NCBI GenBank assembly: GCA_964579145.1
Contig: CAZOGB010000002.1
Span: 592 to 64,591, forward strand
Source of the DNA: an uncultured bacterium
GTDB taxonomy: Bacteria > Armatimonadota > HRBIN16
Length of the DNA: 64,000 nt
Direction: 5' to 3'
Shown: positions 32,533 to 49,979 of the stretch, piece by piece
Layout: every line of letters starts with the position of its first letter
How positions within the stretch are numbered: the first letter of the stretch is position 1
Translations under genes and position numbers: made by a program
The notes under the pieces: model-generated
Database searches by the model: none
Seen by the model: the letters and a program-made list of their open reading frames with translations, nothing else
Told to the model about the DNA's origin: nothing

Positions 32533-33777
32533 TTATACCGCAGGCAGGTGGCGCACATCGCGACGTGCGGCAGTCATCGCTACGACCCCGGCGCATATCA
32601 TCGCGCCGGTCACCAGTGCCGTTGTTGCCGTCCAGTGAGAAGCAATCCATCCCATCAGCAGGTTGCCAAACGGCGCCAGCCCCATGAGCGCAAACACGTG
32701 CAGGGACATCGTGCGCCCGCGCAGATGCTCCGGGCTGAGCGACTGAAGCAGGGCGTTGATAGAACCCAGTGTGCTCACTGCCGAGCCGCCAATCAGCACC
32801 AGACAGAGCAGAGAGAGGGGATAACTGCGCGACAGCGCAAACAGCGTTAAGCCGGTACACAACCCCGTGGCAGCGGTGATGACCACTTTGCCTCTGGGCA
32901 CGGTACCCGCCACCTTCGCCAGTATTAGGGCTCCCGTCAACGCGCCAAAACCAGTTGCTGAAAACAGGTTGCCGAGCCCCTGCTTGCCGACCTGAAGCAC
33001 GTCACGGGCGAAAACGGGCATCAGCGTGGTGTACGACATGGCGAAAATACTCAGCGCGCAGTCCAGCAGGATTAACGACCGCAACAGCCCGTCCCGGTAC
33101 ACATAGGTTAAGCCTTCCTTCAATTCTGACCACACGGATAGTCTTTCCACCGGGGACTGAACGGACGATGCAGGTATCCGCCACAGCGCAAAGATGATGG
33201 CAACATAGCTGACCGCGTTGATGAAGAAACACCATCCCGCGTTCACCATCTCAATCAGCTTGCCCGCGATGGCAGGTCCCAGAATACGTGCGGTGTTGAA
33301 GGCCGCGGAGTTCATTGCCACCCCAACGGTCACAAACTGCTCCCCCACCAGGTCCATCACCATCGCCTGGCGGGCGGGCGCGTCGATGGCGGTGATGAAG
33401 CCGTTTAGCATAGCAATCAGCGCGATGTGCCAGAACGCCACCCGACCACTCAGTACGAGTATCGCCAGGATGAACGCATTTATCGCGAACAGGGATTGCG
33501 TAGTGAGAACCAGCCTGCGCTTTTCAAAGCGGTCGGCAACCACTCCGCCAAACAGGCTGAACAGCGTGGTCGGCAGCGACCCCACAAACCCTAGAAGCCC
33601 CAGAAGCATTTTACTGTTGGTGATTTCATAAACCACCCATCCCTGAGCGACCGTCTGCATCCAGCTGCCGAGAAAGGAGACGAACGCTCCAATCCAGTAG
33701 CTGCGATAGACCGTATTCTGCCACAACGCAATCGCGGAGGGGGCTGTGTGGCTTTCTGTGCTCTGCTGACGCTCCAT
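32533..33777 (-). CDS. MFS transporter (enterobactin-exporter EntS-like)
   Basis: 12-TM MFS topology; EntS-like family resemblance. Confidence 0.7.
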   Translation of the reverse strand: MERQQSTESHTAPSAIALWQNTVYRSYWIGAFVSFLGSWMQTVAQGWVVYEITNSKMLLGLLGFVGSLPTTLFSLFGGVVADRFEKRRLVLTTQSLFAINAFILAILVLSGRVAFWHIALIAMLNGFITAIDAPARQAMVMDLVGEQFVTVGVAMNSAAFNTARILGPAIAGKLIEMVNAGWCFFINAVSYVAIIFALWRIPASSVQSPVERLSVWSELKEGLTYVYRDGLLRSLILLDCALSIFAMSYTTLMPVFARDVLQVGKQGLGNLFSATGFGALTGALILAKVAGTVPRGKVVITAATGLCTGLTLFALSRSYPLSLLCLVLIGGSAVSTLGSINALLQSLSPEHLRGRTMSLHVFALMGLAPFGNLLMGWIASHWTATTALVTGAMICAGVVAMTAARRDVRHLPAV

Positions 33778-33942
33778 ACAGTCTTATTCTATCATGGAAC
33801 CCCACACTCGGCAATTCCATGCACGCCGGTGATTTTACACAGCTTGCATTTTGCCAACGGATGTGTTATTTTATTGATTAGAGTAACTGAATTAAACATC
33901 TGCTTCGCCTGCTCCGTTCCGCCTGCCGGGTGGAGGTAGTGG

Positions 33943-35148
33943 GTGCTGGAGGAAGTGTTTATGCCACAGTCGGAAGCGGTTTCAGAAAAGCGGTTTATTC
34001 TGCCCGCCGGGCAGTTTCAGCGGTTGTTTGACGCCCTGCATCAGGGCGGCTATCAGACCATTGCCCCTACCCTGTTGGACGACGCCATCGTGTACGAGAC
34101 GGTGGATTCGGTGAGTGACCTGCCCCTCGGTCTGACCGACGAACAGCGTGCGGGCGCATACAGAGTGAAACGCAACCCCGAGGGGCGAACTTTCTTTCGT
34201 TATGCAGTGGGTCCGCGTTCATGGAAGCACTATCTCTATCCACCCCGGCAGAGGCTCTGGCGGGCACAACGCAACGGCGATGGAGGCTTCCATGTGCTCG
34301 CCGAGCGGGAGGACGTGCCTCGCTATGCGTTCATCGGCGTACGCGCCTGCGAGCTCGCTGCCATCCAGATACAGGACAGGGTGTTTCTGAGCGAGCAGTA
34401 TCAGGACGAGCACTACCAGCGCAGGCGGGAGAACGCCCTGTTGATAGCCCTCAACTGCACCGCCCCGTCGGGAGTTTGCTTCTGCACCTCCCTGGGAACG
34501 GGACCGCGCGCCAAAGACGGCTTTGACCTTGCCCTCACCGAGGTCTTCGGCAATAATGAGCACTTCTTTCTGGTGGAGGTGGGAACGGAGAGCGGCGCTT
34601 CGCTGGTAGAAGATCTTGGCATGCCTCCAGCCACAGAACAACAGTGTCAGATGGCTGAGGCTCTGATAGCAAACGCCGAGCAACGGATACTGAAGCGTCT
34701 GGACATCTCCGACCTGAAGGAATTGCTCTACCGCAATCTGGACAGTCCACACTGGGAAGAGGTGGCGAGGCGATGCCTTACTTGTTCGAACTGCACGATG
34801 GTCTGCCCTACCTGTTTCTGCCACACGGTGGAAGATGTGACGAATTTGCAGGGCACGGTGGCCGAGCGATGGCGTCAGTGGGATTCCTGTTTCCACGTTG
34901 ACTTCTCGTATATTCACGGCAGCGCAGTGCGCATTTCAGAGGCATCGCGTTATCGGCAGTGGATTACCCACAAACTGGCATCCTGGCAGGACCAGTTCGG
35001 CGTGATAGGGTGTGTGGGATGTGGACGGTGCATCACCTGGTGCCCGGTGGGCATAGATATTACCGAGGAGGTGCGCGCCTTGCGACGTCGCGAGGGGAGC
35101 AGAGCCGCTCCAGCATCACCAAAGGAGGAGAACCATGCGAACGCTTGA
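33943..35148 (+). CDS. hydB: group 3b [NiFe]-hydrogenase beta subunit (HydB-like; 4Fe-4S dicluster protein)
   Basis: Two CxxCxxCxxxCP ferredoxin motifs ([12 protein letters not shown]; [12 protein letters not shown]) plus an N-terminal sulfhydrogenase-beta-like domain; first gene of the hyd operon; the start is either the GTG at 33943 or the ATG at 33961. Confidence 0.65.
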
Positions 35149-35596
35149 GACCATCCTGGCAGAACATCCCTTCTTTGAGGGGTTGCCCGACAAGCACCTG
35201 AAAGTCATCGTGGGCTGTGCCTCCAATGTGAGCTTCGAGGAAGGCGAGACCATCTTCCGCGAGGGCGAAGAGGCGAATCGCTTCTACCTCATCCGACAGG
35301 GGCGGGTGGCGCTGCAGGTGTACGCAGCGGGCATTGGCACGATAACCATTCAGACGCTGGACGCAGGAGACATTTTGGGGTGGTCGTGGCTGGTGCCTCC
35401 CTATCGCTGGCACTTCGACGCGCGAGCGGTGGAACCGGTGCGAGCCATCGCACTGGACGGTGAGTGCTTGCGCCGCAAATGCGAGGAGGACCACGATCTG
35501 GGATATGAACTGCTGAAGCGGTTCGCGGAGATAATCACCCAGCGGCTTCAGGCTACTCGCCTGCAGTTACTGGATGTGTACGGTCTCAGAAGGTAG
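35135..35596 (+). CDS. cyclic-nucleotide-binding-domain protein (CAP/Crp effector domain only, no HTH)
   Basis: [48 protein letters not shown] is the cNMP-binding beta-roll signature; 153 aa; overlaps the hydB stop by 14 nt. Confidence 0.6.
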
Positions 35597-35628
35597 CCTA
35601 TCAGGGAGGAGGACGATTTCCCAAAACG

Positions 35629-36444
35629 ATGATACCATGCCCTTTTCGCATACGGACAGTGCGCCGTGAAACGCAGGATACCTTCACGCTGGAGCTGGAG
35701 CCGGCGGGCGGTCCCGAACGATTCGCGTTCAAGCCCGGGCAGTTCAATATGCTGTATGTGTTTGGCGTGGGCGAGATACCCATCTCCATCAGCGGCGACC
35801 CCGCCGACCCCCGAGTGCTCATGCACACCACGCGCGAGGTGGGAACCGTCACCAAAGCGATGGGCAGGTTGAAGCGGGGCGATATTATCGGCGTGCGCGG
35901 ACCGTTCGGCACACCGTGGCCCGTGCAGGAGGCAGAGGGTGCAGATGTGGTGATTGTCGCTGGAGGCATCGGGCTGGCGCCTTTGCGCCCCGCACTCTAC
36001 CACGTGCTGGCACATCGCGACCGCTACGAGAAAGTCGTTCTGCTTTACGGCACGCGCACGCCAAGCGACATCCTGTACCGGCGCGAACTCCAACGATGGC
36101 GAGCACAGTTCGACCTCGAAGTGCACATCACTGTAGACCGTGCAATGAGCGGCTGGCGCGGCAATGTCGGGGTGGTGACCTCGCTGATACCACGTGCACC
36201 TTTTGACCCGCGCAGTGCGGTGGCGCTTGTCTGTGGTCCCGAAATCATGATGCGCTTTACCGTGCTGGAACTGCAGCGGCGAGGCGTTCCCCCCTCGCAG
36301 ATTTACATCTCGATGGAACGCAACATGAAGTGCGGTGTGGGCATCTGCGGGCACTGCCAGCTCGGTCACTGTTTTGTGTGCAAGGATGGTCCCGTGTTCC
36401 GCTACGACACGATACAGCATCTGTTTGAGAGGCGGGAGATATAG
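35629..36444 (+). CDS. hydG: group 3b [NiFe]-hydrogenase gamma subunit (FAD/NAD(P)-binding oxidoreductase, HydG-like)
   Basis: Ferredoxin-NADP-reductase-like fold (RPxS-like FKPGQF; GGIGLAPL) and a C-terminal 2Fe-2S Cys cluster ([17 protein letters not shown]). Confidence 0.7.
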
Positions 36445-36446
36445 CC

Positions 36447-37229
36447 ATGGCGCGTGCAATCAAGCCAAAGCTGGCGGTCTGGAAGTTTGCTTCATGCGAC
36501 GGGTGTCAGCTCAGCCTGCTGGACTGTGAGGAAGAACTGCTGGAGGTCGCTGGCGCAATAGAGATTGCCTACTTTCCCGAAGCGAGCCGGGCGGTAGTGC
36601 GGGGACCCTACGACATCTCGCTGGTGGAAGGTTCCATCACCACTCCACACGATGCCGAGCGCATCCACCAGGTGCGCCGGGCGTCGCGTTTTCTGGTCAC
36701 TATCGGTGCGTGTGCGACTGCCGGGGGCATTCAGGCACTGCGCAATTTTAAGGATGTTCAGGAGTTCATCCGGGCGGTGTATGCGTCTCCGCAATACATC
36801 GAAACCCTGAGCAAATCCACCCCCATCCGCGACCATGTGTTTGTGGATTACGAGCTTCGGGGTTGCCCTATTAACAAATATCAACTGCTGGAAGTCATCA
36901 ACGCTTATCTCAACGGGCGCAAGCCGAACATCGCTCCACACAGCGTGTGCACGGAGTGCAAGCGGCGTGGCATTGTGTGTGTGATGGTGGCGAACGGCAC
37001 GCCCTGCCTTGGACCCGTCACCCATGCGGGATGCGGCGCCATCTGCCCTTCTTATCGGCGCGGATGCTACGGGTGCTTTGGTCCCAAGGAAACGCCCAAC
37101 CCCGCTGCGCTGAGCAAGCGTTGGAAGCAGCTCGGCGTGAAAGAGGATAACCTGGTGCGCGCCTATCGCAGTTTCAACGCCTATTCGGAAGCCTTCCGAC
37201 GAGAGAGTGAAAGCCATGAAAGGTCATAA
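36447..37229 (+). CDS. hydD: [NiFe]-hydrogenase small (delta) subunit, group 3
   Basis: [26 protein letters not shown] is the Nuo20k/hydrogenase small-subunit proximal-cluster motif; 260 aa. Confidence 0.8.
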
Positions 37230-38505
37230 CATCCGGGTAGATTATCTGGCAAGAGTGGAGGGCGAAGGCTCTCTGCATGTTCGCTTCAGGGGCGGAAAAC
37301 TGGAGGAAGTGCATTTTAAGATTTTCGAGCCTCCTCGCTTCTTCGAGGCGTTTTTGCGCGGGCGAAGCTATCATGAAGCACCGGACATCACCGCCCGAAT
37401 CTGCGGCATCTGCCCGGTGGCCTACCAGATGAGCGCAGCGCACGCGATGGAAGATGCCTTTGGCGTGAAAGTGGAAGGGCCCATTCGCGACCTGCGCCGA
37501 CTGATATACTGCGGCGAATGGATAGAGAGCCACGTGCTTCACGTCGCCCTGCTTCACGCCCCGGACTTTCTGGGCTATGAAGACGCCATCCAGATGGCGC
37601 GAGAGCATCCGCAAATCGTGCAGACCGCCTTGCAGCTGAAAAAGGTGGGCAACGACCTGGTGAACCTCATCGGCGGGCGCGAGATACATCCGATAAACGT
37701 GAAAGTGGGAGGCTTCTACAGGGTTCCCCGTCGGCGCGACCTGGACGCGATTGAAGAGCGTTTAAAGTGGGCGCGCGACGCTTCGGTTCAGCTGGTTAAG
37801 TGGGCGGCGAGCCTGCCCATTCCTGACTTCGAGCAGGATTACGAGTTTGTGGCTCTGCAACACCCCGCAGAGTATCCGATGAACGAAGGCAGGCTCGTCT
37901 CGAATAAAGGGTTGGACATCGCCATAGATGAGTTCGAGACTCACATCGTCGAAGAGCATGTGCCCTACTCCAACGCTCTGCACGCGCGTATCGCCAGACG
38001 TGGAGCCTATCTGGTGGGACCGCTGGCGCGGTTCAACCTCAATTTCGCGCGACTATCGCCGCTGGCGCAGGAGGCTGCCAGAGAGGTTGGCGTCGTTCCT
38101 CCCTGCCGTAACCCGTTCCAGAGCATCGTGGTTCGCGCCATCGAAACCCTCTATGCGTGCGACGAGGCTCTGCGTATCATTGAACACTACACCATGCCGA
38201 ACAAGCCGGCTATAGACATACGTCCTTGCGCGGCGACCGGGCATGGATGCACTGAAGCCCCGCGCGGCATCCTCTACCATCGCTATCGCGTGGATGAATA
38301 CGGCACCATTCTGGACGCCCGAATCGTGCCGCCTACTGCCCAGAACCAGAAAACCATTGAGGCGGACCTGCGGAGCCTGATTGAGGCGAATCCTGACCTG
38401 CCGCTGGAACAGCTACAGTGGCGATGCGAGCAGGCGATACGCAACTACGATCCGTGTATCTCCTGCGCCACACACTTCCTGAAAATCAACATACAGAGGG
38501 AATAG
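37207..38505 (+). CDS. hydA: [NiFe]-hydrogenase large (alpha) subunit, group 3b
   Basis: N-terminal [10 protein letters not shown] and C-terminal DPCISCATH Ni-binding CxxC pairs; 432 aa. Confidence 0.85.
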
Positions 38506-38628: not shown

Positions 38629-39105
38629 TGGGGTGACTTTTGACATAGGGCACAAATGGCTCCATGAACCGCTGGCTTATCTGGCTGATACTTTGCATAC
38701 AGGGCATTTACGACCTGTCGTTAACGGGGCTGGCGCGGATGACCGCAACAGCTGGTCAGGACTCGTTACAACGGCTGCACGCGGTGTACTGCCACTGCCA
38801 ACACTGCTCGGACATCCACAGCTGCTGTTGCGTGCCCCACAAGCAGGTCATCACCGAAGCAGCCGTGCGCCAGTGTGACCCGTCTCCAGCAGCCAAAGTA
38901 GCCAATACGTGGGCATTTCGGCTGGTAAGCCAGCTGCCGACTGAAGTGCCGCTGTGTATCTCGTCTGAAGAGGCTGGTGGCTACGTACCCAGCTATCACG
39001 ATACCTTTGTGCTACCTCCTGAACCTCCTCCGCGTGGTGTCTGAGAAGACTCGTGTCTGCCAACTTTTCTCGGACATTACAAAACCAGCAAGAGGAGGTC
39101 AGGAA

Positions 39106-39846
39106 ATGCTTCGCAAGGGTTTTACGCTCATTGAACTTCTGGTGGTTATCGCGATTATCGCGATACTTGCCGCCATCCTGTTGCCTGTGTTCTCACAGGC
39201 TCGTGAGAAGGCGCGCGCTGCCGCCTGCCTGTCCAACTGCCGGCAGATGGGTATCGCGGTGCAACTCTACGTTCAGGACTACGACGAGACGATGCCGACA
39301 GTGAGGATGATGTGGCCTGGTATGCCTCAACCGCCTGTCAGCTGGCTCGAGCAGCTGCAGCCCTATGTGCGGACGCCTCTGCTACAACGCTGTCCCTCAG
39401 ACAGCAGCCCGGCGTGGCAGGCAAACCCGCCTCGCGTTTCTTCTTACGGGCTGAACGCCTACTTCGATCCCTTCCATGCCCCGTACGGCGACCACCTGGC
39501 GCCTCGTCCGCTGGCGCTTGCGTCCGTTGCTCGACCCGCCCAGTGTATCTACATCGCCGAACTGGCAGAGGTCAACCGCAAAAACGGAATGCCCATTAAA
39601 GCGGACCACTTTATGCCCATGTACTGGGGTAATCCGCCGCGGGTGATGGATATGATGATGAACGCCATGATGTGGGATGCCAATGCGCAGATACCCACCA
39701 CACTCGCCATCGCGCGCCACCAAGGCGGGGCAAACTATGTCTTTGTGGACGGGCATGCGAAGTGGCATCTGTTCGGGCAAACCTGGCAACAGAGAACAGG
39801 TGAAGTACCTCTCGTTGACTGGTACGACCCGATGCGCGCCGAATAG
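39106..39846 (+). CDS. DUF1559 (H-x9-DG) protein with a prepilin-type N-terminal cleavage/methylation domain
   Basis: [49 protein letters not shown] is the type-IV-pilin-like N-terminus typical of DUF1559; start at the ATG at 39106, 7 nt after AGGAGG; the upstream part of the track ORF is removed. Confidence 0.75.
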
Positions 39847-39879: not shown

Positions 39880-41013
39880 TCACGCCAGACGTTTGGTGAA
39901 GCGTAGGCTCGCCAGGCTGAACAGCAACAGCCCGATTATTACCAGAGCCAGCGCATCCCCCCACAACACCTCTAACCCCACCCCCTTCAGGAAGATGCCC
40001 CGTACGATGTTCAGAAAATAGCGCAGGGGTATCAGATAGGTGAGCAGCTGGATAACCCGCGGCATGTTTTCGATGGGGAACATGAAGCCCGACAGCAGGA
40101 TGGACGGAAGCATGATGAAGAAAGCGGTCATCATCGCCTGTTGCTGGGTGTGGGAGACGGTGGAGATGAATAAGCCGAGCCCCAGACTGGTCAGCACGAA
40201 GGTAAGCGTGAGCGCGAGCAGGAGCAACAGACTGCCCTTCAATGGTACTTTGAACCACAGAGTTGCAATGGTCAGTATCAACAGCACATCTGCGAAGCCG
40301 ATCAGCACAAACGGCACGGTCTTACCAATCATCAGTTCGTGTGCGCGCACCGGCGTCACTATAATCTGCTCCAGAGTGCCCACCTCACGCTCTCGAACTA
40401 TCGCCATAGAGGTTAGCACCATCGTCACCACCAGCAGGATGGTGCAGAGCACGCCGGGTACCATGTAGTTCACGCTTCGCAGTTCGGGATTGAACCACAC
40501 GCGCGTTCGCTCTTCCACCACAGGCAGGCGTGTGAGCCGGGCGTGGACGCGCTGTAAACGCTCAATCATGGTCTCCTCCGAGTAGCGCCGCAACAGCCCA
40601 GCGGTGTAAGCCTGTACCATCCCCGAAGTGGTGGAGTCTGTGCCGTCCATAATCACCTGCAGGGGCGCACTTTCACCTCTTGCCAGCTGTCGGGCAAAGC
40701 CCCGTGGGATTTCGATGCCCACCATCACCTGTCCGCTGTCCAGCAGGGGAACCAGGTCCTGGGGACGGTTGAGGTAGCATACAACGTCAAAGTAGCCCGT
40801 GTTCTCGAAGCGTGCAATGAGCTCGCGGCTCTCACGGCTGCTGTCCATATCAATAACTGCCGTCGGTATGTGCTTGATGTCGGTTGTCACGGCGTAGCCG
40901 AAGATAATCAGCTGAAGGACCGGCGCAACCAGCACTATCCTCAGCATCCGTGGGTCACGACGGAGCTGGATGAACTCTTTGCGAATGAGATATTTTATCC
41001 GCTGTGTAAACAT
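39880..41013 (-). CDS. ABC-2-type transporter permease
   Basis: ABC-2 family six-TM permease; start trimmed to the ATG at 41013 (MFTQRIKYLIRKEF...), removing a 130-aa antisense extension. Confidence 0.75.
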   Translation of the reverse strand: MFTQRIKYLIRKEFIQLRRDPRMLRIVLVAPVLQLIIFGYAVTTDIKHIPTAVIDMDSSRESRELIARFENTGYFDVVCYLNRPQDLVPLLDSGQVMVGIEIPRGFARQLARGESAPLQVIMDGTDSTTSGMVQAYTAGLLRRYSEETMIERLQRVHARLTRLPVVEERTRVWFNPELRSVNYMVPGVLCTILLVVTMVLTSMAIVREREVGTLEQIIVTPVRAHELMIGKTVPFVLIGFADVLLILTIATLWFKVPLKGSLLLLLALTLTFVLTSLGLGLFISTVSHTQQQAMMTAFFIMLPSILLSGFMFPIENMPRVIQLLTYLIPLRYFLNIVRGIFLKGVGLEVLWGDALALVIIGLLLFSLASLRFTKRLA

Positions 41014-41021
41014 GGAGCACC

Positions 41022-42155
41022 TCACAGTCGCTTTTGGAACTTCATCGCGCTGACCCCCACCGCAATCATCCCAAAGAGCACCAGAGGCAGGGCGTGTTTC
41101 CACAGCACCTCCGGTCCCACCCCTTTCAGGAAGATGCCGCGCAGGATCACGATGAAGTAACGCGCCGGGATGAGGTAGGTTAGCAGTTGCAGAGGCTTTG
41201 GCATGGCGCTGATGGGGAACACGAAGCCCGACAGCAAAACGGACGGAAGCATTGTGCCCAGCATAGCGGCGATAAAAGCGACCAACTGCGTGCGCGCCAC
41301 CACCGAGATGAGCAGTCCGATCCCGAGCGAGGAGAGCAGGAACACGCCTGAATGCACCAGCAACAGCACCACACTTCCGCGAACGGGAACATCGAAGAGC
41401 CACCTCCCCACCGCCAGCACCAGCAACACATCCGCGTAGGCGATAAGCACATACGGGATAACCTTGCCAATCATCAGCTCGTGAGGCATGACGGGCGAAA
41501 CCACCAGCTGCTCAATAGTCCCCCGCTCTCGTTCACGCACGATGGTCAGGGAGGTCAACAGCGCGGCGAGCATCTGCAAAATCACCGCAATCAGCCCGGG
41601 CACGATGAAATAGGTGCTGTTCATTTCGGGGTTGTACCAGACGCGCGGGCGGAAGTCTATCGGCGCCACGATGCGCTCGGCGGGAAGCCCCTTCCGCATG
41701 GCGAACTGGCGCGCGTATTCCACCGAGAACGCCTGTACAAAACCGGAAACATATCCCTGCGCGATGGTAGCAGTGGTGGAATCCGAGCCGTCTACCAGCG
41801 CCTGTATCTGTGGCGTTCTGCCCGACGCCAGGTCTCGCCCAAAGCCGCGCGGAATGACCAGAATCAGCTTCGCCTCTCCGCGATTGAGCAGGTCATCAAT
41901 CTGCCGATGCGTGTCCAAGTAGCGCACCACGTCAAAGTATTCGTTGTGCTGAAGCGAGCGGATGAAGTCACGCGAGGTGGAGCTCCTGTCATAGTCCAGC
42001 ACCGCCGTGCGCAGATGGCGGACGTCCATATTGATGGCGTAGCCGTAGAGGATCAGCATCAGCACCGGCAGTATCACCACGACCGCCATCGTGCGCACAT
42101 CTCGCAGGATATGAATGAACTCCTTGCGCATCACCGCGAGGATTCGGGTTATCAT
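41022..42155 (-). CDS. ABC-2-type transporter permease (paralogue)
   Basis: Paralogue of the downstream permease; start at the ATG at 42155 (MITRILAVMRKEF...). Confidence 0.75.
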   Translation of the reverse strand: MITRILAVMRKEFIHILRDVRTMAVVVILPVLMLILYGYAINMDVRHLRTAVLDYDRSSTSRDFIRSLQHNEYFDVVRYLDTHRQIDDLLNRGEAKLILVIPRGFGRDLASGRTPQIQALVDGSDSTTATIAQGYVSGFVQAFSVEYARQFAMRKGLPAERIVAPIDFRPRVWYNPEMNSTYFIVPGLIAVILQMLAALLTSLTIVRERERGTIEQLVVSPVMPHELMIGKVIPYVLIAYADVLLVLAVGRWLFDVPVRGSVVLLLVHSGVFLLSSLGIGLLISVVARTQLVAFIAAMLGTMLPSVLLSGFVFPISAMPKPLQLLTYLIPARYFIVILRGIFLKGVGPEVLWKHALPLVLFGMIAVGVSAMKFQKRL

Positions 42156-42156
42156 C

Positions 42157-43110
42157 TCAGTTGCCTCCCTCGCCCAGCTCGCGGTCTGTTCGTTCCACCA
42201 GCGCCACGAACACATCCTCCAGCGAGGGCAGTACGGGTTGCAGAGAGCGGATGGTGAACTGCTCCCGGAGAAGCCTTGCCCTCACCTGTTCTGCGGCGTG
42301 CTCGCCTTCGGGGACAACCACGTGCAGTTTTTTGCCGAACACCGCCACATCGCGCACCAGAGGGTCACCAGCCAGAACGTCCAAGGCAGGCATCTGCGGC
42401 TCCACCTCTACCTCCAGCAGTTGCCCCGACGTGTACGCCGATTTCAGCTGAGCCGGTGTGCCCATCGCCACGATTCTGCCCCGGTAGATGAGGCACAGTC
42501 GGTCGCAGTGCTCGGCTTCGTCCATGTAGTGCGTGGTGACGAATACCGTCACGCCCCCCTGCGCCAGCTCGTAGATAAGCTCCCAGAACTGCCTGCGCGA
42601 CACGGGGTCTACTCCTGCTGTAGGCTCATCCAGAAAGAGGATCTCCGGCTCGTGCACAATCGCACAGCCCAACGCCAGCCGCTGTTTCCAGCCCATCGCC
42701 AGCTCGCCGGTCAGCGTCCTTTGCCTTGCCTCCAGCCCTGCCATCTGTATTACCCATCGCTTGCGCTCCTCCATGCGGCTCGGCGGGACACCGTATATCC
42801 CCGCGTAGAACTGGATGTTTTCCTCAACGGTCAGGTCTTCGTACAACGAGAACCTCTGCGACATGTAACCGATGCGCTCCTTAATCTGCTCGGCTTGCGT
42901 TCGGATGTCCAGCCCGGCAACGGTGCCGGTGCCCGAGGTGGGTTCAATGATGCCGCACAGCATGCGAATGGTGGTGGACTTCCCCGCGCCGTTCGGTCCC
43001 AGGAATCCGAAGATTTCGCCACGCCTGACCGAAAAGCTTAACCGGTCCACCGCCGTGAAGTCACCGAACCGCCGCGTCAGCTCGTTGACCTCCACTGCCC
43101 ATTCGCTCAT
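42157..43110 (-). CDS. ABC transporter ATP-binding protein
   Basis: Walker A GPNGAGKSTT, LSGG signature and Walker B; start at the ATG at 43110, overlapping the upstream stop as ATGA. Confidence 0.85.
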   Translation of the reverse strand: MSEWAVEVNELTRRFGDFTAVDRLSFSVRRGEIFGFLGPNGAGKSTTIRMLCGIIEPTSGTGTVAGLDIRTQAEQIKERIGYMSQRFSLYEDLTVEENIQFYAGIYGVPPSRMEERKRWVIQMAGLEARQRTLTGELAMGWKQRLALGCAIVHEPEILFLDEPTAGVDPVSRRQFWELIYELAQGGVTVFVTTHYMDEAEHCDRLCLIYRGRIVAMGTPAQLKSAYTSGQLLEVEVEPQMPALDVLAGDPLVRDVAVFGKKLHVVVPEGEHAAEQVRARLLREQFTIRSLQPVLPSLEDVFVALVERTDRELGEGGN

Positions 43111-44045
43111 CCCCCAGTCCCCCTTTGCGCCTCCATGATGGCAACAAACACGTCCTCCAGACCCGGGCTCATCGGCTGAAGGTGCTCGATGCGGACGTTC
43201 GCCTGAGCAAGTGTCCGCTGGATAAGGGAGACGTCCCTTTCCGCGTTCTGGAGCCAGACATGCAGTCGCTCGCCGAACACCTGAACGCCCTGCACGCCCG
43301 CTGTGTGGCTTAATAGATGCTTCGCTTCGCGCTGGGGATGGCAAATGAGTTCAACCAGGTCGCCCATCATGCGGTTTCGCAGGTTGTCCGGGCTGTCGCA
43401 CACGATAATGCGCCCGGCGTACATGAAGGCTATTCGGTTGCACCGTTCCGCCTCGTCCATGTAGGGCGTGCTGACCACCAGGGTCATGCCCCTGCCCACC
43501 AGGCTGTAGAGTATCCGCCAGAAATCGCGCCGAGAGACGGGGTCCACGCCAGTGGTTGGCTCGTCGAGAAAGAGTATCTCGGGCGTGTGGATGAGCGTGC
43601 AGGCAAGCGCAAGCTTCTGCTTCATCCCGCCTGACAGATTCTGTGCGAGCCGGTGGGTAAACGGAGCCAGCCTGCTGAACTCCAGAAGCTCTTTCTGTCG
43701 TGCGATGCGCTCCTCTTTGGGCACGCGGTAGATGTCGGCAAAGAAGTCCAGATTCTCCTGCACGGTCAGGTCGCCGTACAGGCTGAACCGCTGAGACATA
43801 TAGCCGATGCGCTGTTTGACCTCTTCGGGATGAGTGCGCACGTTGAAGCCTGCCACGATTGCCTCGCCGGCGGTCGGCTCGATGGCTCCTACCAGCATGC
43901 GAAAGGTGGTGGTTTTGCCCGCGCCGTCCGGTCCGACAATGCCGAACACCTCGCCGCGCTTAACCTGCAAATCCACCGAGTCCACCGCGACGACCTCGCC
44001 GAACAGTTTGCGCAGGGCGTGTGCCTCTACTGCGAGCTCGCTCAT
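43107..44045 (-). CDS. ABC transporter ATP-binding protein (paralogue)
   Basis: Walker A GPDGAGKTTT, the ABC signature and Walker B. Confidence 0.85.
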   Translation of the reverse strand: MSELAVEAHALRKLFGEVVAVDSVDLQVKRGEVFGIVGPDGAGKTTTFRMLVGAIEPTAGEAIVAGFNVRTHPEEVKQRIGYMSQRFSLYGDLTVQENLDFFADIYRVPKEERIARQKELLEFSRLAPFTHRLAQNLSGGMKQKLALACTLIHTPEILFLDEPTTGVDPVSRRDFWRILYSLVGRGMTLVVSTPYMDEAERCNRIAFMYAGRIIVCDSPDNLRNRMMGDLVELICHPQREAKHLLSHTAGVQGVQVFGERLHVWLQNAERDVSLIQRTLAQANVRIEHLQPMSPGLEDVFVAIMEAQRGTGG

Positions 44046-44057
44046 CGCCGCCTCCGC

Positions 44058-45479
44058 CTACGGGGAAAGGAAAATGGTGGCATCGGCTGGCATTCCGGGC
44101 TTCAGCTCATGGCGCGGGTTTGCCAGCGTAATCTTCACGCCGAACACCAGCCTCACTCGCTCCTCCCTGGTCTGGACGTTCTTCGGCGTAAACTCCGGCT
44201 TGTCAGCGATTTCGGAGACCTTCCCCTCAAACCGGTTACCGGGAAAGGCGTCCACCACCACCTCGGCGCGGTCGCCCAGCTTCACGCGCATGTCAGGCTC
44301 GGGAACGTACACCTTCAGCCATACGCTATCCAGATTGGCGACGCGAACGATGGGCATTCCGGGCGTGACCAGCTCACCCTGCTCGGCGACCTTGAGGATG
44401 ACTCTCCCTGCCACGGGAGACCGAACGGTCAGGTGCTCGCGAAGCGCCTTTGCCGACTCCAGTGCGCCCCGTGCCTGTTCCACCTGTGCCCTCGCCGCTT
44501 GGATAGTCTCTTCGCGGGCGCCAGCGAGCAGGAGTTGCAGACGGGCGCGGGCAGCCGATACTGCTTCCAGCGCGGTGCGGTACTGTGTGCGCGCCTGTTC
44601 CAGCTGCTGTTTGGTCACCAGGCGGTCGGTATAGAGCTCTTTCACCACCTGCAGGTTGAGGCGTGCCCCTTCCATCTGCGCACGTGCCTGCGCTTCCGCT
44701 GCGCGTGCCTGTTCGCGTTCTTCCACGCGGGCACCAGCCTGCAGTTCTGCCAGCTTTGCCTCCGCCGCCGCAAGCGCCGCCCACGCGGTATCCCGTCGTG
44801 CGATGGCGGAGTCCATCTGCTGTCTGGAAATGGCTCCCGTTGCGAACATGTTCTGGGCACGCTCCACATCCTGCTGTGCGTTGATATACTGTGCTTTTGC
44901 CTGTTCAACGGCGGCGCGAGCCTGCTCTATCTGCTCCACACGCGCCCCGGCTTCCACCATCTCCAATCGCGCCTTCGCCTGCTTGTAGGCGTTCTCGGCA
45001 ACCTCATAAGCGGATTGGGCGTTGACCAGCTGTGCTTTCAGCTCCGTCGCTTTGGCGAACATCTCCTGAACCGTTGCCAGCGTCCGGCGTGCTCCCTCCG
45101 CGGCTGCCTCCGCCTGCGCCAGGTTCGCCTGCGCCTGACGTATCTCTTCTTCCCGCGCTCCCTTCAGCAGCTCTGCCAGCCGTGCCTGAGCCGCTCGGTA
45201 GGCTCCCTCCGCCTGAAGCACCTGTGCCTCCAGCTCCCTGCCGTCCAGAACGGCGATAACCTGCCCTGCCTGCACCTCGTCGCCCTCGTCAACCAGCAGT
45301 TTGAGGATGCGCCCTGTGGTTTTCGCGCTGACGTCTACCTCGGTGGCTTCAATGGTGCCGCTGGCGAGGATAACGTTGCCCGGCGGAGCAGGGCGCGAAA
45401 GCACCACACGCCACACCGCAAAGCCCGCTATCACCAGCGCAATCAGCACCAGCACACGAGACGCCCTGCCGTGTTTCAT
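44058..45479 (-). CDS. HlyD-family membrane-fusion (periplasmic adaptor) protein with a long coiled coil
   Basis: N-terminal TM, biotinyl-lipoyl-like halves, an extended A/E/R/Q-rich coiled coil, and a C-terminal beta-barrel. Confidence 0.75.
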   Translation of the reverse strand: MKHGRASRVLVLIALVIAGFAVWRVVLSRPAPPGNVILASGTIEATEVDVSAKTTGRILKLLVDEGDEVQAGQVIAVLDGRELEAQVLQAEGAYRAAQARLAELLKGAREEEIRQAQANLAQAEAAAEGARRTLATVQEMFAKATELKAQLVNAQSAYEVAENAYKQAKARLEMVEAGARVEQIEQARAAVEQAKAQYINAQQDVERAQNMFATGAISRQQMDSAIARRDTAWAALAAAEAKLAELQAGARVEEREQARAAEAQARAQMEGARLNLQVVKELYTDRLVTKQQLEQARTQYRTALEAVSAARARLQLLLAGAREETIQAARAQVEQARGALESAKALREHLTVRSPVAGRVILKVAEQGELVTPGMPIVRVANLDSVWLKVYVPEPDMRVKLGDRAEVVVDAFPGNRFEGKVSEIADKPEFTPKNVQTREERVRLVFGVKITLANPRHELKPGMPADATIFLSP

Positions 45480-46114
45480 CGCCGAATGCCCTCCAGAAGC
45501 AGATTCGCGAACACCTCCGCGTACTCTTCCGCACTGTGCCTCGGCAAAATCTGTTCTTTGGTCCCCTCACTGCACGCCAGCAGATGGTCAAACAGGATGG
45601 TCATCCAGAACGCCCCCACCAGCATCCGCGCGGCAATCTCCACCGGCACCTCGCGAAAAGCCCCCTCCTGCATCCTTCTGGAAAGGTACTCCTTCACTAT
45701 GCTCGATGCGGGGCGAATGACCTCCTGCATCAACTGCTCGGCTACCTGCTCGTCGTGCATCGCCTGGGGAAGCAGTGCCCTCAGAAGGTCGGCGTACCGC
45801 TCTCCAAAGCGTATCCTGTCCCGGAAGAGCGAGCGCAATACCTCCGGGTCATTCGTTTCCTGCGACGCCGAGAGGATGTCTTTCAATACCGGCAGGCTTG
45901 CCTGCCCCAGCAGGGCGAAAAGCAAGTGGCGCTTGGAGGGGAAATGAATGTAAATGGTTCCTTCCGCCACTCCGGCTTCCTGAGCAATCATGCGCGTGGT
46001 GGTGGAATCGTATCCCCGCTGGGCGAACAGCCGCAACGCTGCCTGAAGGATTGCCTCTTTTGTGTCTTTTGCTCCTCTGCGTCTGCCTTTTTGTGATGGT
46101 GCGGCGCACATCAT
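45476..46114 (-). CDS. TetR-family transcriptional regulator
   Basis: TetR HTH (TKEAILQAALRLFAQRGYDSTTTRMIAQEAGVAEGTIYIHF); first gene of the efflux operon. Confidence 0.8.
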   Translation of the reverse strand: MMCAAPSQKGRRRGAKDTKEAILQAALRLFAQRGYDSTTTRMIAQEAGVAEGTIYIHFPSKRHLLFALLGQASLPVLKDILSASQETNDPEVLRSLFRDRIRFGERYADLLRALLPQAMHDEQVAEQLMQEVIRPASSIVKEYLSRRMQEGAFREVPVEIAARMLVGAFWMTILFDHLLACSEGTKEQILPRHSAEEYAEVFANLLLEGIRR

Positions 46115-46125
46115 TTCTCCTTATG

Positions 46126-46145
46126 ATGAGTGAGCACTCACTCAT
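46126..46145. promoter_or_regulatory. probable TetR operator (perfect 9-2-9 palindrome ATGAGTGAG-CA-CTCACTCAT)
   Basis: Perfect inverted repeat 12 nt upstream of the tetR start codon, in the divergent tetR / hycI intergenic region. Confidence 0.55.
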
Positions 46146-46219
46146 ATATTACTCGCCACCTCTGGCATTGTCAAGAGGAGCGGGGCGCGTGCAGAACAAA
46201 TTATGCCGAGGAGGATTCC

Positions 46220-46684
46220 ATGCACAGGACACTTCTTATCGGGATTGGCAACGTTTACCGCAGAGACGACGGCGTGGGCATCGTGGCGGTGCGTCGGGCG
46301 CGCTCCCTGCTCCCCCCGTCGGTGGAGGTGTTGGAGTGGACGGGCGACCTCATGACGCTTCTGGAGATATGGCAGGGTTCCCGCTGTGTTGTGGTGGATG
46401 CGCTTCGTTCAGGAGGCACGTCAGGACAGATACTCCGCATGGAGGCGCACCGTGAACCGTTGCCTGTGGAAGGGCGCTTCTTCTGCACGCACTCGATTGG
46501 GCTGGAGGAGGTTATTGCTCTGGCGCATGTGCTGAACAAACTGCCGGTGGAGCTGATACTGTACGGCGTGGAGGGTAGCGACTTCGGCGAAGGCGAAGGG
46601 TTGTCGCCAGAGGTCGAAAAGGCAACGGATGATGTGGTACGATATATCCTGCAGGACGTTATGAAGGACAGGGCAGATGCATGA
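46220..46684 (+). CDS. hycI: hydrogenase maturation endopeptidase (HycI/HybD family)
   Basis: LLIGIGNVYRRDDGVG...HSIG motifs of the hydrogenase C-terminal maturation proteases; start at the ATG at 46220 after GAGGAGGA. Confidence 0.75.
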   Translation: MHRTLLIGIGNVYRRDDGVGIVAVRRARSLLPPSVEVLEWTGDLMTLLEIWQGSRCVVVDALRSGGTSGQILRMEAHREPLPVEGRFFCTHSIGLEEVIALAHVLNKLPVELILYGVEGSDFGEGEGLSPEVEKATDDVVRYILQDVMKDRADA

Positions 46685-47036
46685 GTTCTCGATAGCCGAG
46701 GCAATCGTGCGCACCAGTGAAGAGGTGCTGAGAGCGAACGGCGGCGGCAAGGCGGAAAAGGTGCATTTGCGCATCGGCGAGCTGCGTCAGGTGGTTCCCG
46801 ACGCGCTGACCTTTGCCTTTGACATCCTGAAAGAAGACACCCTGCTGGCGGATGCGTCGCTGGAGTGGGAGACCGCACCTGCGCAGGTGCGCTGCAGGTC
46901 CTGCGGGACGGAATATCATCCGAGAGATGTTTTCTGGGAGTGTCCTTCATGCGGCGCGATAGGCGCGGAGGTGGTGGCAGGCGAGGAGCTGGAGATACTG
47001 GCCATTACTCTGGCAGGAGGTTCAGATGGAGATTAA
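46677..47036 (+). CDS. hypA: hydrogenase nickel-incorporation protein HypA
   Basis: MHEFSIAEAIV N-terminus and the CRSCG...CPSCG zinc site. Confidence 0.85.
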   Translation: MHEFSIAEAIVRTSEEVLRANGGGKAEKVHLRIGELRQVVPDALTFAFDILKEDTLLADASLEWETAPAQVRCRSCGTEYHPRDVFWECPSCGAIGAEVVAGEELEILAITLAGGSDGD

Positions 47037-47688
47037 GGTTGTGCGGCGAATAATGGAGGCGAACGAACAGCACGCGGAGGTGGTGCGCCAGCGGCTGCGA
47101 GAGGCAGGCGTGGTGGCACTAAACCTCATCAGCGCACCCGGCTCAGGCAAAACGTCGTTAATCGAGTGCGCTATTCGCGAGCTGAAGGGCAAGGTGAACA
47201 TAGGCGTTATTGAAGGCGACCCCGACACCACCCGCGACGCCGAACGCATCGCCCGGCTGGATGTACCCGTCGTGCAGATTAATACCGAGGGCGGCTGTCA
47301 CCTGGAGGCGACGATGGTTCTGCGCGCGCTGGATGAAATAGACCTGAACGCCCTGCAGTTGCTATTTATCGAGAACGTGGGCAATCTGGTATGTCCGGTA
47401 GTGTTTGACCTGGGCGAAACGCATCGGGTGGCGGTGGTCAGCGCCGCGGAGGGTCACGATAAGCCCGCTAAATACCCTGCCCTGTTCCGCACCGCGCAGG
47501 TGACTGTGTTAAACAAAGTGGACCTGATACCCTATCTGGACTTTGACGAGTCGCAGTTTACCGCCGACGTACGCCGGCTGAACCCCGATATGCCGATACT
47601 GCGCGTGTCCTGTCGCACCGGCGAGGGAGTGGTGGAATGGGTCCGTTGGCTGGAGGGCTTGTTGAATAAAGAGGCTGTCACGCAGTAG
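47026..47688 (+). CDS. hypB: hydrogenase nickel-incorporation GTPase HypB
   Basis: P-loop SAPGSGKTSLIE, ENVGNLVCP and NKVDL G-motifs. Confidence 0.85.
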   Translation: MEIKVVRRIMEANEQHAEVVRQRLREAGVVALNLISAPGSGKTSLIECAIRELKGKVNIGVIEGDPDTTRDAERIARLDVPVVQINTEGGCHLEATMVLRALDEIDLNALQLLFIENVGNLVCPVVFDLGETHRVAVVSAAEGHDKPAKYPALFRTAQVTVLNKVDLIPYLDFDESQFTADVRRLNPDMPILRVSCRTGEGVVEWVRWLEGLLNKEAVTQ

Positions 47689-47708
47689 GTCTTACGAGAC
47701 AGCACCTG

Positions 47709-49979
47709 TTGAGCATGTCACATTCGGTCCAGCGCGTTCGTCTGGTTATTCGAGGGGCGGTACAGGGCGTGGGGTTTCGCCCGTTTGTGTTCCGCCTGGC
47801 GACCGAGCTCGACTTGCGGGGGTGGGTGCTGAACTCGGCGCAGGGCGTCTTCATCGAGGTGGAGGGCGAACCGGCTCTGCTCCAGCAGTTCGTGAAACGT
47901 CTCTATCACGAGTTGCCCCCACGCGCTTTCATCCAGAGCATGGAGCAGTCGGTTCTTGACCCCGCTGGCTACACCGCTTTCGAAATCCGTCACAGCGAAG
48001 AGACTGGCGAAAAGAGCGCACTCATCCTGCCCGACATCGCCACCTGCGCCGATTGCCTGCGCGAAATCTTCGACCCCGCCAACCGCCGCTACCGCTATCC
48101 CTTCACCAACTGCACAAACTGCGGTCCGCGCTACAGCATCATTGAGTCCCTGCCCTACGACCGCCCGAACACCACCATGAAGGCGTTCACCATGTGCGCG
48201 AAGTGCCGGGAGGAGTACGAGAACCCGCTGGACCGGCGATTCCACGCTCAACCGAACGCCTGCCCAGAGTGCGGTCCACGTCTGAATCTCTGGGACGAGC
48301 AAGGCGGTGTGCTGGCACAGTATGACGAGGCTCTGCGCAGGGCGGCGGATGCCATCCGCGAGGGGCGTATTGTGGGAGTAAAGGGGCTTGGGGGCTTCCA
48401 TTTGATAGTAGACGCCCGCAATGAGCAGGCTGTTCGTCGGCTCCGTGAGCGCAAGCGACGGGAGGAGAAGCCATTTGCGCTGATGTATCCCTCTCTGCAG
48501 ATGGTGCGGGCACACTGCTGGGTAGACGAAGCGGAAGAACGCGTGCTCACCTCGCCCGAATCGCCGATTGTCCTCCTGCGCCGCAAGGGGGATGCCGACA
48601 TTGTTCCTTCGGTTGCGCCCGTCAACCCCTATCTGGGCGTGATGCTCCCCTACACTCCCCTGCACCACCTCCTGCTTGCCGAACTGGGCTTTCCGGTTGT
48701 TGCCACCAGCGGGAACCTGTCGGATGAGCCTATCTGCACGGACGAATACGAGGCACTCCAGCGTCTCGCCGGCATCGCCGACCTGTTTCTGGTGCACAAC
48801 CGACCGATTGCCCGTCATGTGGACGACTCGGTGGTGCGCGTGCTAATGGGGCGTGAAATGGTGTTGCGGCGGGCGCGCGGCTATGCGCCTCTGCCTGTTC
48901 TGGTAAAGGAGCCTCTGCCTCCCCTGCTGGCCGTGGGTGCGCACCTGAAAAACACCGTCGCGCTGAGCGTGGGCAGGCAGGTTTTTATCAGCCAGCATAT
49001 CGGCGACCTGGAGACCCCACAGGCGCTGGAGGCGTTCCGGCGCGTGATTGCCGACGTGCGTGCCCTTTGGGAGCACCAGCCGCAGGCGGTAGCGTGTGAC
49101 ATGCACCCCGATTACCTCTCCACGCAGTCTGCGCACCGCATGGGGCTTCCCCTCGTGAGCGTTCAGCATCACTACGCGCACGTGCTGGCGTGCATGGCGG
49201 AGAACGAGGTCGCACCTCCCGTGCTGGGCGTCTCGTGGGATGGCACGGGCTACGGCGCCGACGGCACGGTGTGGGGCGGCGAGTTCCTGCTGGTGACCGA
49301 AACAGGCTTCGAGCGGGTGGCGCACCTGCGACCATTCCGCCTGCCCGGTGGTGACCGCGCCCCCAAAGAGCCTCGCCGCTCCGCGCTGGGAGTGCTGTAT
49401 GAAATGCTGGGCGAGCAGGCGTTTGACCTGCTGGGCAACCTGTTCACCCCTCGCGAGCGGCATCTTCTGGCGCAGATGCTCAGGCAGGGCGTGAACGCTC
49501 CCATCACCACCAGCGCGGGCAGGCTGTTTGACGCGGTGGCATCGCTGGTCATCGGGCGGCAGGTGGTGAACTTCGAAGGGCAGGCGGCGATGGAGCTGGA
49601 GTTCCTCGCCCATTCCGCACAGGGTGACGACTCGTATCCCTTCAGGTTGTCAGAGGGAACTCCGCGCGTGCTGGACTGGTCACCGACGGTGGAGGCAATC
49701 TTGCAGGATGTCCAGCAGGGTGCGGAGCCTTCATGGATTGCCCTGCGCTTTCACAACGCCCTGGTGGAGATGGTGGTGGCGGTGGCGAAGGCGGTCGGTG
49801 TGGAGCGGATTGCGCTCAGCGGGGGCTGTTTCCAGAACGCCTATCTGACCGAGCGGGCGGTGCGTCGCCTCACCGAAGAGGGCTTTCGCATGTACTGGCA
49901 TCAGCGCGTTCCTCCCAACGACGGCGGCATCGCGCTAGGACAGTTGGTGGGGGCAGGACACCTGCTGCCTAAAGGTTGA
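47709..49979 (+). CDS. hypF: [NiFe]-hydrogenase maturation carbamoyltransferase HypF
   Basis: Acylphosphatase domain, two CxxC Zn fingers, a YrdC-like domain and a Kae1-like domain; 756 aa. Confidence 0.9.
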   Translation: MSMSHSVQRVRLVIRGAVQGVGFRPFVFRLATELDLRGWVLNSAQGVFIEVEGEPALLQQFVKRLYHELPPRAFIQSMEQSVLDPAGYTAFEIRHSEETGEKSALILPDIATCADCLREIFDPANRRYRYPFTNCTNCGPRYSIIESLPYDRPNTTMKAFTMCAKCREEYENPLDRRFHAQPNACPECGPRLNLWDEQGGVLAQYDEALRRAADAIREGRIVGVKGLGGFHLIVDARNEQAVRRLRERKRREEKPFALMYPSLQMVRAHCWVDEAEERVLTSPESPIVLLRRKGDADIVPSVAPVNPYLGVMLPYTPLHHLLLAELGFPVVATSGNLSDEPICTDEYEALQRLAGIADLFLVHNRPIARHVDDSVVRVLMGREMVLRRARGYAPLPVLVKEPLPPLLAVGAHLKNTVALSVGRQVFISQHIGDLETPQALEAFRRVIADVRALWEHQPQAVACDMHPDYLSTQSAHRMGLPLVSVQHHYAHVLACMAENEVAPPVLGVSWDGTGYGADGTVWGGEFLLVTETGFERVAHLRPFRLPGGDRAPKEPRRSALGVLYEMLGEQAFDLLGNLFTPRERHLLAQMLRQGVNAPITTSAGRLFDAVASLVIGRQVVNFEGQAAMELEFLAHSAQGDDSYPFRLSEGTPRVLDWSPTVEAILQDVQQGAEPSWIALRFHNALVEMVVAVAKAVGVERIALSGGCFQNAYLTERAVRRLTEEGFRMYWHQRVPPNDGGIALGQLVGAGHLLPKG

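Follow-up and report, generated by a model that had tools for sequence, protein, structure and literature searches.

In a 64,000-nt stretch of DNA from an uncultured Armatimonadota bacterium of the HRBIN16 lineage (assembly GCA_964579145.1, contig CAZOGB010000002.1; hereafter the window, to which all positions refer), the open reading frame (ORF) listing placed five genes on the + strand at 33943-38505, in the order hydB, a gene encoding only a cyclic nucleotide monophosphate (cNMP)-binding domain, hydG, hydD and hydA. The results described below indicated that this operon is a further case of a widespread and already annotated five-gene architecture of group 3b [NiFe]-hydrogenases and not a one-off insert, and that the 153-aa cNMP-domain protein may be, with a probability of roughly 0.55, a paired and non-catalytic partner of the HydB/HydG diaphorase module, by analogy with HoxI of the Cupriavidus soluble hydrogenase. 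The cNMP gene, which encodes a putative fifth hydrogenase subunit, occupies 35135-35596 (+ strand). It overlaps the end of hydB by 14 nt (35135-35148) and is separated from hydG by 32 nt (35597-35628), both values being exact, and a strong Shine-Dalgarno sequence, AAAGGAGGAG (35121-35130, + strand), was read inside the hydB 3′ end, with a spacing of 4 nt to the start codon (ATG) of the cNMP ORF. The gene order, both junctions and the HydA motifs RICGIC and DPCISCATH, as given in the initial annotation, were all found again in the ORF listing, and the tight coupling that it proposed for these genes agrees with the overlap, the short gap and the ribosome-binding sequence.

The cNMP ORF was recovered in very large numbers when proteins were searched. 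At E<=1e-5, a word-indexed search with the cNMP protein matched 7,997 proteins, the best 120 of which were of ~150-165 aa, shared 69% identity or more with the query and bore labels of Armatimonadota, Blastocatellia, Ignavibacteriales, Brocadia and Bacteroidota; among named relatives, those from Armatimonadota metagenome-assembled genomes (MAGs) were nearest to the window protein. An exhaustive search of 50%-identity cluster representatives returned 483 of them at E<=1e-30. Since thousands of homologues with ~70% identity are found across phyla, the cNMP ORF is not a chance ORF of the spacer between hydB and hydG. An annotation artefact of this kind, which the initial annotation had named as a possible outcome, was refuted by the conservation of the protein in related operons; together with a confident structural prediction and a Pfam match above the cut-off (see below), this leaves such an explanation with a practically negligible probability.

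The gene neighbourhood was equally conserved. A one-genome-per-species scan gave at least 600 matches, from which 80 loci were kept for context, and hydB was found directly upstream and on the same strand in 75 of these 80, with hydG-hydD-hydA following downstream in the syntenic loci as far as the contigs reached. The labels of the syntenic loci cover a dozen or more phyla, and their median identities to the window proteins were 51% (HydB), 66% (cNMP protein), 66% (HydG), 75% (HydD) and 66% (HydA), so that the cNMP protein matches HydG and HydA in conservation. The identical 14-nt overlap between hydB and the cNMP gene was present in 19 of the 75 loci, most junctions falling between -29 and +30 nt, and the gap between the cNMP gene and hydG measured 31-37 nt in most loci. 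The same order was also observed in Brocadia and Blastocatellia genomes, and on plasmids of Burkholderia thailandensis and Rhodococcus qingshengii annotated by the Prokaryotic Genome Annotation Pipeline (PGAP), the R. qingshengii cNMP protein being only 39% identical to that of the window. Three complete operons of this order, with 64-78% identity to the window proteins, were found on contigs labelled Bathyarchaeia (L065), Enterobacteriaceae (L017) and Clostridia (L067), which would point to mistakes in binning or labelling or to recent transfer.

The initial annotation had regarded the insert as unusual for a hydBGDA cluster, a view that did not hold. A metagenome scan with a DNA pattern for the HydB motif CxxCxxxCPTCxC, which is also present in the HydB of Pyrococcus furiosus, yielded 120 arbitrary loci, classified by tblastn and a broad cNMP hidden Markov model. 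Among the decidable group 3b operons of this arbitrary metagenome sample, 26 of 33 carried the cNMP gene, a further nine operons being undecidable; the gene stood between hydB and hydG in 25 of the 26 and upstream in the remaining one. Most bacterial 3b operons thus have the cNMP insert, which PGAP also annotates and three papers mention. The seven 3b operons in which no cNMP gene was seen despite adequate flanks encoded HydA proteins 32-49% identical to that of the window, and the best Protein Data Bank (PDB) matches of the three that were checked were still sulfhydrogenases; for the cNMP-bearing operons of hydB-cNMP-hydG order (B-c-G), HydA identity was 55-70%. In a neighbour-joining distance tree of ~50 HydA sequences, all cNMP-bearing operons formed one clade, comprising the B-c-G type and a sister type with the cNMP gene and a HydB-HydG fusion (c+BG), and the operons devoid of the cNMP gene fell outside it. 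Because all cNMP-bearing operons share one clade, the simplest reading of the tree would be that the gene was acquired once, at the root of a large clade of bacterial 3b enzymes.

The same scan retrieved ~50 HydB/HydG-like pairs without hydrogenase genes, in which no cNMP-only gene was found, except for locus L118. In this metagenome locus (L118:6514-9653, - strand), an operon encodes a cNMP-only protein of 168 aa besides a ferredoxin and proteins resembling HydB and HydG, with no hydrogenase subunits nearby. Cyclic nucleotide-binding-like partners may then accompany diaphorase modules of the HydB/HydG type in other enzymes too, L118 being a single example.

A further line of evidence came from gene fusions, which were sought with a concatenated HydB+cNMP+HydG query, the domains being then mapped on the matches. 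HydB-cNMP fusions of 539-542 aa formed eight 90%-identity clusters (P0125 and P0202 are among the fused proteins), and an 837-aa protein (P0173) joins cNMP, HydB and HydG in one chain, with hydD and hydA as the next genes. The query also found ~100 HydB-HydG fusions, and in four of the four operons examined a cNMP-only gene overlapped the start of the fusion by 4-8 nt. The cNMP domain hence accompanies the HydB/HydG pair through four gene arrangements, and it repeatedly occurs in twos. In the operon of the fusion P0202, hydG is preceded by a second cNMP gene that stands free; at L093/L094:6001-8184, a HydB-cNMP fusion of 542 aa is followed by a free, shorter cNMP gene (133 aa) ahead of hydG, giving two different cNMP domains per operon. 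About nine representatives of the cNMP family are tandem two-domain proteins of 300-348 aa, and P0028 is a partial tandem protein. Taken together, the L093/L094 operons, P0028 and the tandem representatives suggest, from their sequences, that the cNMP unit is a paired one. Tandem two-domain proteins (P0286-P0295), with two matched stretches each, were at the top of the representative search. Two candidate fusions were set aside, the case for fusion being built on the eight independent clusters and P0173. An in-frame HydB-cNMP fusion at L026:5849-7462 was not used because an arginine-rich, frameshift-like stretch in its HydB made an assembly error likely; L026 comes from a long-read MAG named 'delta proteobacterium', and hydG is missing there. 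Likewise, P0121 (720 aa), matching HydB, cNMP and HydG, was not relied on owing to frameshift-like segments.

These arrangements also bear on the proposal that the cNMP protein is a trans-acting regulator of expression which, lacking a DNA-binding domain of its own, would titrate or partner another regulator. Membership of the CRP/FNR effector-domain superfamily, the label given to a related gene in one paper (PMC11879354) and the existence of orphan copies outside hydrogenase operons speak for it. However, the protein comprises only 153 aa with no helix-turn-helix (HTH) domain, its gene lies between enzyme-subunit genes with overlapping or tight junctions, it is fused to HydB or to HydB-HydG in several lineages, and regulators are seldom conserved like catalytic subunits across phyla. 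Such a role is, in consequence, quite improbable.

Regarding the protein itself, cNMP_binding (PF00027) was the only Pfam domain detected, covering residues 32-119 with 58.2 bits against a cut-off of 27.5. No HTH or other DNA-binding domain was matched by Pfam in the 153-aa chain, which ends after a long helix, in agreement with the initial description of a Crp-type domain unaccompanied by a DNA-binding one. NCBIfam held no dedicated model for the protein, giving generic sub-threshold matches only. The AlphaFold2 (AF2) model was confident (predicted local distance difference test, pLDDT, 88.4; predicted template modelling score, pTM, 0.81) and presented a beta-roll followed by a C-terminal helix of ~30 residues (120-150). 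In Foldseek, the nearest structure was 3mdp (template modelling (TM) score 0.79/0.91), the N-terminal domains of Mycobacterium tuberculosis CRP and GlxR being also close, and the probability was 1.0 to the cyclic nucleotide-binding domains of CRP and PKG. No solved hydrogenase entry in the PDB matched the cNMP protein.

In Escherichia coli CRP, Glu72, Arg82 and Ser83 contact cAMP. When the window protein was aligned to it, these residues corresponded to Trp83, Trp92 and His93, respectively, and the Gly-Glu ... Arg-Ser/Thr contacts of the phosphate-binding cassette (PBC), which characterize functional cAMP/cGMP receptors, were absent. Instead, the clade of the window protein shows little or no variation in the segment G-W-S-W-L-x-P-P-Y-x-W-H-F-D-A-R-A, with Gly82, Trp83, Ser84, Trp85, Leu86, Pro88, Pro89 and Trp92 (near-)invariant at positions 82-86, 88, 89 and 92. 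Since the cAMP-contact residues of CRP are replaced by Trp, Trp and His, sensing of cAMP or cGMP by the cNMP protein is unlikely, as is any canonical binding of these nucleotides judged from the alignment. A genuine cAMP/cGMP-binding regulatory subunit of the hydrogenase would be consistent with the Pfam match above the gathering cut-off and with a fold like that of the domains that bind cAMP in M. tuberculosis CRP and GlxR, and it shares the support for subunit status with the preferred explanation. It is nonetheless improbable, given that the cAMP contacts are replaced, that positions 82-86, 88, 89 and 92 are otherwise (near-)invariant, and that sister clades hold yet other residues at the pocket positions. 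Thus, of the initial suggestion of a regulatory or accessory subunit conferring nucleotide responsiveness, the accessory part was strengthened by synteny, by fusions to HydB and to HydB-HydG, and by the presence throughout the four architectures, whereas the responsiveness to cAMP/cGMP was not supported, given the Glu72/Arg82/Ser83 to Trp83/Trp92/His93 replacements.

Beyond the pocket, the window-type clade shows little or no variation at Cys28, Cys111, Cys116 and His120. Both Cys28 and Cys111 are missing from the actinobacterial, fused and upstream-gene versions, and in the more distant aligned versions both are present or both absent together. A family-wide Fe-S or metal site formed by the four residues was therefore discarded, in view of the loss of Cys28 and Cys111 in other versions; a disulfide or metal site specific to the clade of the window could be formed by Cys28, Cys111, Cys116 and His120. 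What is common to all architectures lies mainly in the C-terminal helix (R137, L138, R142, Q144, D147 and Y/F149, within the motif R-L-x-x-T-R-L-Q-L-L-D-x-Y/F), along with a handful of glycines, Ser84, Arg113 and Asp119. In CRP, the corresponding long helix is the dimer interface, and by this analogy we infer that the C-terminal helix of the cNMP protein acts as a pairing or docking element.

The conservation pattern is also what feeds the main rival, in which the cNMP protein would be a purely structural or assembly factor (scaffold or chaperone) with no ligand sensing, helping HydB/HydG to fold, to acquire Fe-S and FAD, or to dimerise, and perhaps absent from the mature enzyme. The helix is conserved across architectures and the pocket residues are not, the HydB-HydG fusions of the sister clade suggest a selection for holding the module together, and tandem and duplicated cNMP copies exist, all of which would suit such a factor. 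On the other hand, hundreds of species in the clade of the window show no variation in the pocket motif and the three cysteines, which goes beyond the needs of a passive scaffold, and covalent fusions imply a permanent presence, at least in the fused lineages. This structural role was considered rather unlikely, though it deserves more weight than any other rival.

According to the preferred explanation, of a HoxI-like paired partner, the cNMP protein, HydB and HydG would be made from one transcript, and the cNMP protein would bind the HydB/HydG diaphorase module as a pair of CRP-like domains joined via the conserved C-terminal helix, presumably in a 2:1 stoichiometry. Considering that the cAMP/cGMP-contact residues are lost, the effector, if any, would not be one of these nucleotides; it could be, for example, NADPH/NADP+, as proposed for HoxI, or a redox signal received via the clade-specific cysteines. 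The effect would be to stabilise, gate or activate the route that electrons take between NAD(P)(H) and the [NiFe] centre, any regulatory influence being predicted from these comparisons.

Several observations weigh against this explanation. Five of the 80 close homologues are orphans without hydrogenase genes, and Streptomyces plasmid copies, ~40% identical, are likewise found away from hydrogenase genes. The pocket residues W85, W92 and P89 differ between the B-c-G and upstream-gene clades, and a pocket that is not conserved between clades weakens any single-ligand model, a purely structural role fitting equally well. When P0202, a natural fusion, was modelled with AF2, both domains folded well (pLDDT 85.7), but the pTM was 0.66 and the linker was disordered, and this model was rejected as a stand-in for a HydB:cNMP complex because no usable interface was obtained under such values. 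The HoxI analogy rests on 20% identity and on a different type of diaphorase, and no biochemical study of a 3b-associated cNMP protein was found in literature searches. Finally, the only 3b enzymes reported as characterised by 2019, none of them bacterial, were of the four-subunit archaeal kind (PMC6688271). Archaeal 3b enzymes do not have the cNMP gene. As for the orphan loci, L073, L077, L081, L085, L086 and L090 displayed no hydrogenase genes within ~7 kb, and the orphans from Chthonomonadaceae, Mycobacterium, Chloroflexota and Actinomycetota MAGs were 64-68% identical to the window protein.

A broader and more tentative proposition, for which the odds are clearly lower than for a HoxI-like partner as such, is that bacterial 3b hydrogenases are five-component enzymes made of HydB, a pair of CRP-like domains, HydG, HydD and HydA, in which the pair would act as an allosteric gate with a swapped effector, shifting the enzyme from idle to active and back, and recruited independently in groups 3b and 3d (HoxI). 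NADPH/NADP+, a flavin or nucleotide, or thiol redox via Cys28, Cys111 and Cys116 would be candidates for the swapped effector. If such a gate exists, aerobes and facultative anaerobes would vent or take up H2 only upon demand of the NAD(P)H pool, and the control principle might perhaps extend to other HydB/HydG-type oxidoreductases, such as the one encoded by the L118 operon. Group 3b enzymes have been described as widely distributed, oxygen-tolerant and bidirectional (PMC12319191). If the CRP-like partner is obligatory in most bacterial 3b enzymes, current models of what these enzymes consist of, how they are regulated and how they couple to cofactors miss a component, as does heterologous expression aimed at NADPH regeneration, and annotations as cAMP-binding protein or transcriptional regulator mislead. 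The same operon is found in genetically tractable hosts, e.g., Rhodococcus and B. thailandensis.

The remaining features of the operon supported the assignment to group 3b made in the initial annotation. A putative promoter region lies in the intergenic segment 5′ of hydB (33778-33942, + strand), divergent from an MFS transporter gene; sigma-70-like matches near it were weak only, e.g., at 33766-33795 with 9/12 positions. The hydB (hyhB) gene (33943-35148, + strand), with an alternative start at the ATG 33961, encodes the 401-aa AsrA-like 4Fe-4S electron-transfer subunit of the diaphorase module (Pfam Fer4_22, 1.8e-32; NCBIfam sulfhyd_HydB, 3.7e-48; PDB 9nez_B, the beta subunit of P. furiosus soluble hydrogenase I (SHI), 8e-43). 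The hydG (hyhG) gene (35629-36444, + strand) encodes the 271-aa AsrB-like FAD/NAD(P)-binding subunit with a 2Fe-2S site (Pfam NAD_binding_1 and DHODB_Fe-S_bind; NCBIfam 'cytochrome-c3 hydrogenase subunit gamma', 6e-68), and hydD (hyhS; 36447-37229, + strand) the 260-aa [NiFe]-hydrogenase small subunit (Pfam Oxidored_q6; NCBIfam ShyD/HydD). The large subunit gene, hydA (hyhL), was listed at 37207-38505 (+ strand) with 432 aa (Pfam NiFeSe_Hases; best NCBIfam models ShyA and HydA; PDB 5yxy_A, 2.8e-60, and 9nez_D, 5e-59), and its product holds RICGIC, plus DPCISCATH at the C-terminus. Its start is probably the ATG at 37216 (429 aa, as called on the identical contig L002) and not the GTG at 37207, in which case hydA overlaps the hydD stop by 14 nt, a length equal to that of the overlap between hydB and the cNMP gene. 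With RxCGxC and DPCxxCxxH in the large subunit, AsrA-like and AsrB-like diaphorase genes beside those of the small and large subunits, and, as best solved relatives, the Thermococcus kodakarensis (5yxy) and P. furiosus (9nez) enzymes, both of group 3b, the window enzyme is, from its motifs and domains, an NAD(P)-linked group 3b [NiFe]-hydrogenase. For bacterial 3b enzymes, the cofactor specificity was reported as untested (PMC6688271). The top NCBIfam models of the four enzyme subunits were those of the sulfhydrogenase Hyd/Shy beta, gamma, delta and alpha subunits, all below the equivalog cut-offs, which makes it a distant member of the group.

Maturation genes were located on the + strand by tblastn with Hyc/Hyp proteins of related loci and by Pfam, namely a hycI-type endopeptidase gene (46130-46684; HycI), hypA (46677-47036; HypA), hypB (47026-47688; cobW/HypB) and hypF (47709-49979; HypF), and these genes (46130-49979) presumably serve the window hydrogenase. 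No hypC, hypD or hypE was found within the 64-kb window. The ~7.6 kb between hydA and the maturation genes contain a gene for a DUF1559/prepilin-type protein (38977-39846) and, on the - strand, a block with two ABC-2-like permease ORFs, an ATPase, an HlyD-type protein and a TetR regulator (39880-46114). Since the protease gene and hypA lie directly 3′ of hydA in Brocadia and Burkholderia, this transporter block looks like an insertion.

Archaeal 3b operons consist of four structural genes, and the canonical hydBGDA of the initial annotation is the Pyrococcus-type prototype of these, with no cNMP gene; hyhBGSL is what standard accounts of the group continue to list. The best solved relatives of all four enzyme subunits of the window are P. 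furiosus SHI (hydBGDA; 9nez/9nf0) and T. kodakarensis Hyh (5yxy), and the matched sulfhydrogenase PDB chains were named only as alpha and beta subunits; literature searches turned up no publication on the cryo-EM entries of P. furiosus SHI. In contrast, bacterial 3b clusters described in Frankia (synton-4, Francci3_4495-4500), Rhodococcus equi 103S and 'M. acidophilus' 29, like the B. thailandensis and R. qingshengii plasmids, have the same five genes in the same order as the window. They differ from it in belonging to other lineages, the actinobacterial cNMP copies being only ~39% identical and without Cys28, Cys111 and Cys116. The 3b-associated cNMP gene was labelled a 'small transcriptional regulator' in Frankia (PMC11879354), mentioned in R. 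equi (PMC13332983) and called "HoxI" in a methanotroph (PMC12319191), and its PGAP annotation is generic, including in cultured Burkholderia and Rhodococcus.

The closest solved structure to the cNMP protein is that of Gmet_1532 from Geobacter metallireducens (3MDP), also a stand-alone cNMP-domain protein, 32% identical, which shares the long PBC region with the window protein and reads S-S-L-I-K-P-Y-H-Y in this segment. However, its gene belongs to a cluster of electron-transfer flavoprotein (ETF), thiolase and short-chain dehydrogenase genes, with no adjoining hydrogenase or HydB/HydG genes, and this ETF/beta-oxidation-like context rules out 3MDP as a hydrogenase-associated paralogue. To our knowledge, no function has been published for Gmet_1532. 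Effector domains of CRP/FNR factors (E. coli CRP, M. tuberculosis CRP, GlxR, DNR and NtcA) share with the window protein the eight-stranded beta-roll and the long helix; the window protein differs in having no HTH domain and in the replacement of the cAMP-contact residues.

The known system nearest in kind is the soluble NAD+-reducing group 3d enzyme of Cupriavidus necator (Ralstonia eutropha) H16 (HoxFUYHI2), in which HoxI, as the window protein, is a small cNMP_binding-only protein encoded in the operon of a cytosolic, NAD(P)-linked [NiFe]-hydrogenase. Two of these cNMP-domain chains reportedly sit as a homodimer on the diaphorase of the soluble enzyme, where HoxI provides an NADPH activation site, and it detaches at raised ionic strength (PMC3702609, PMC3189943), as at 150 mM KCl and pH 8. 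The two proteins are only 20% identical over 127 residues (pairwise E 8e-7), and HoxI was not retrieved when plasmids, including pHG1, were searched by tblastn with the cNMP protein at E<=1e-3. The PBC Glu, lost in the window family, is retained in HoxI, and His-Ser of HoxI takes the place of Trp...Trp-His. In addition, hoxI is placed at the operon end, after the protease gene, whereas the window cNMP gene lies between the diaphorase genes, and the partner of HoxI is a Complex-I-like diaphorase (HoxFU), that of the window protein being AsrAB-like (HydBG). At 20% identity, orthology to HoxI was ruled out, and, judging from these sequences, HoxI is an analogue of the 3b-associated cNMP protein, probably resulting from an independent recruitment of the same kind of domain to a hydrogenase diaphorase.

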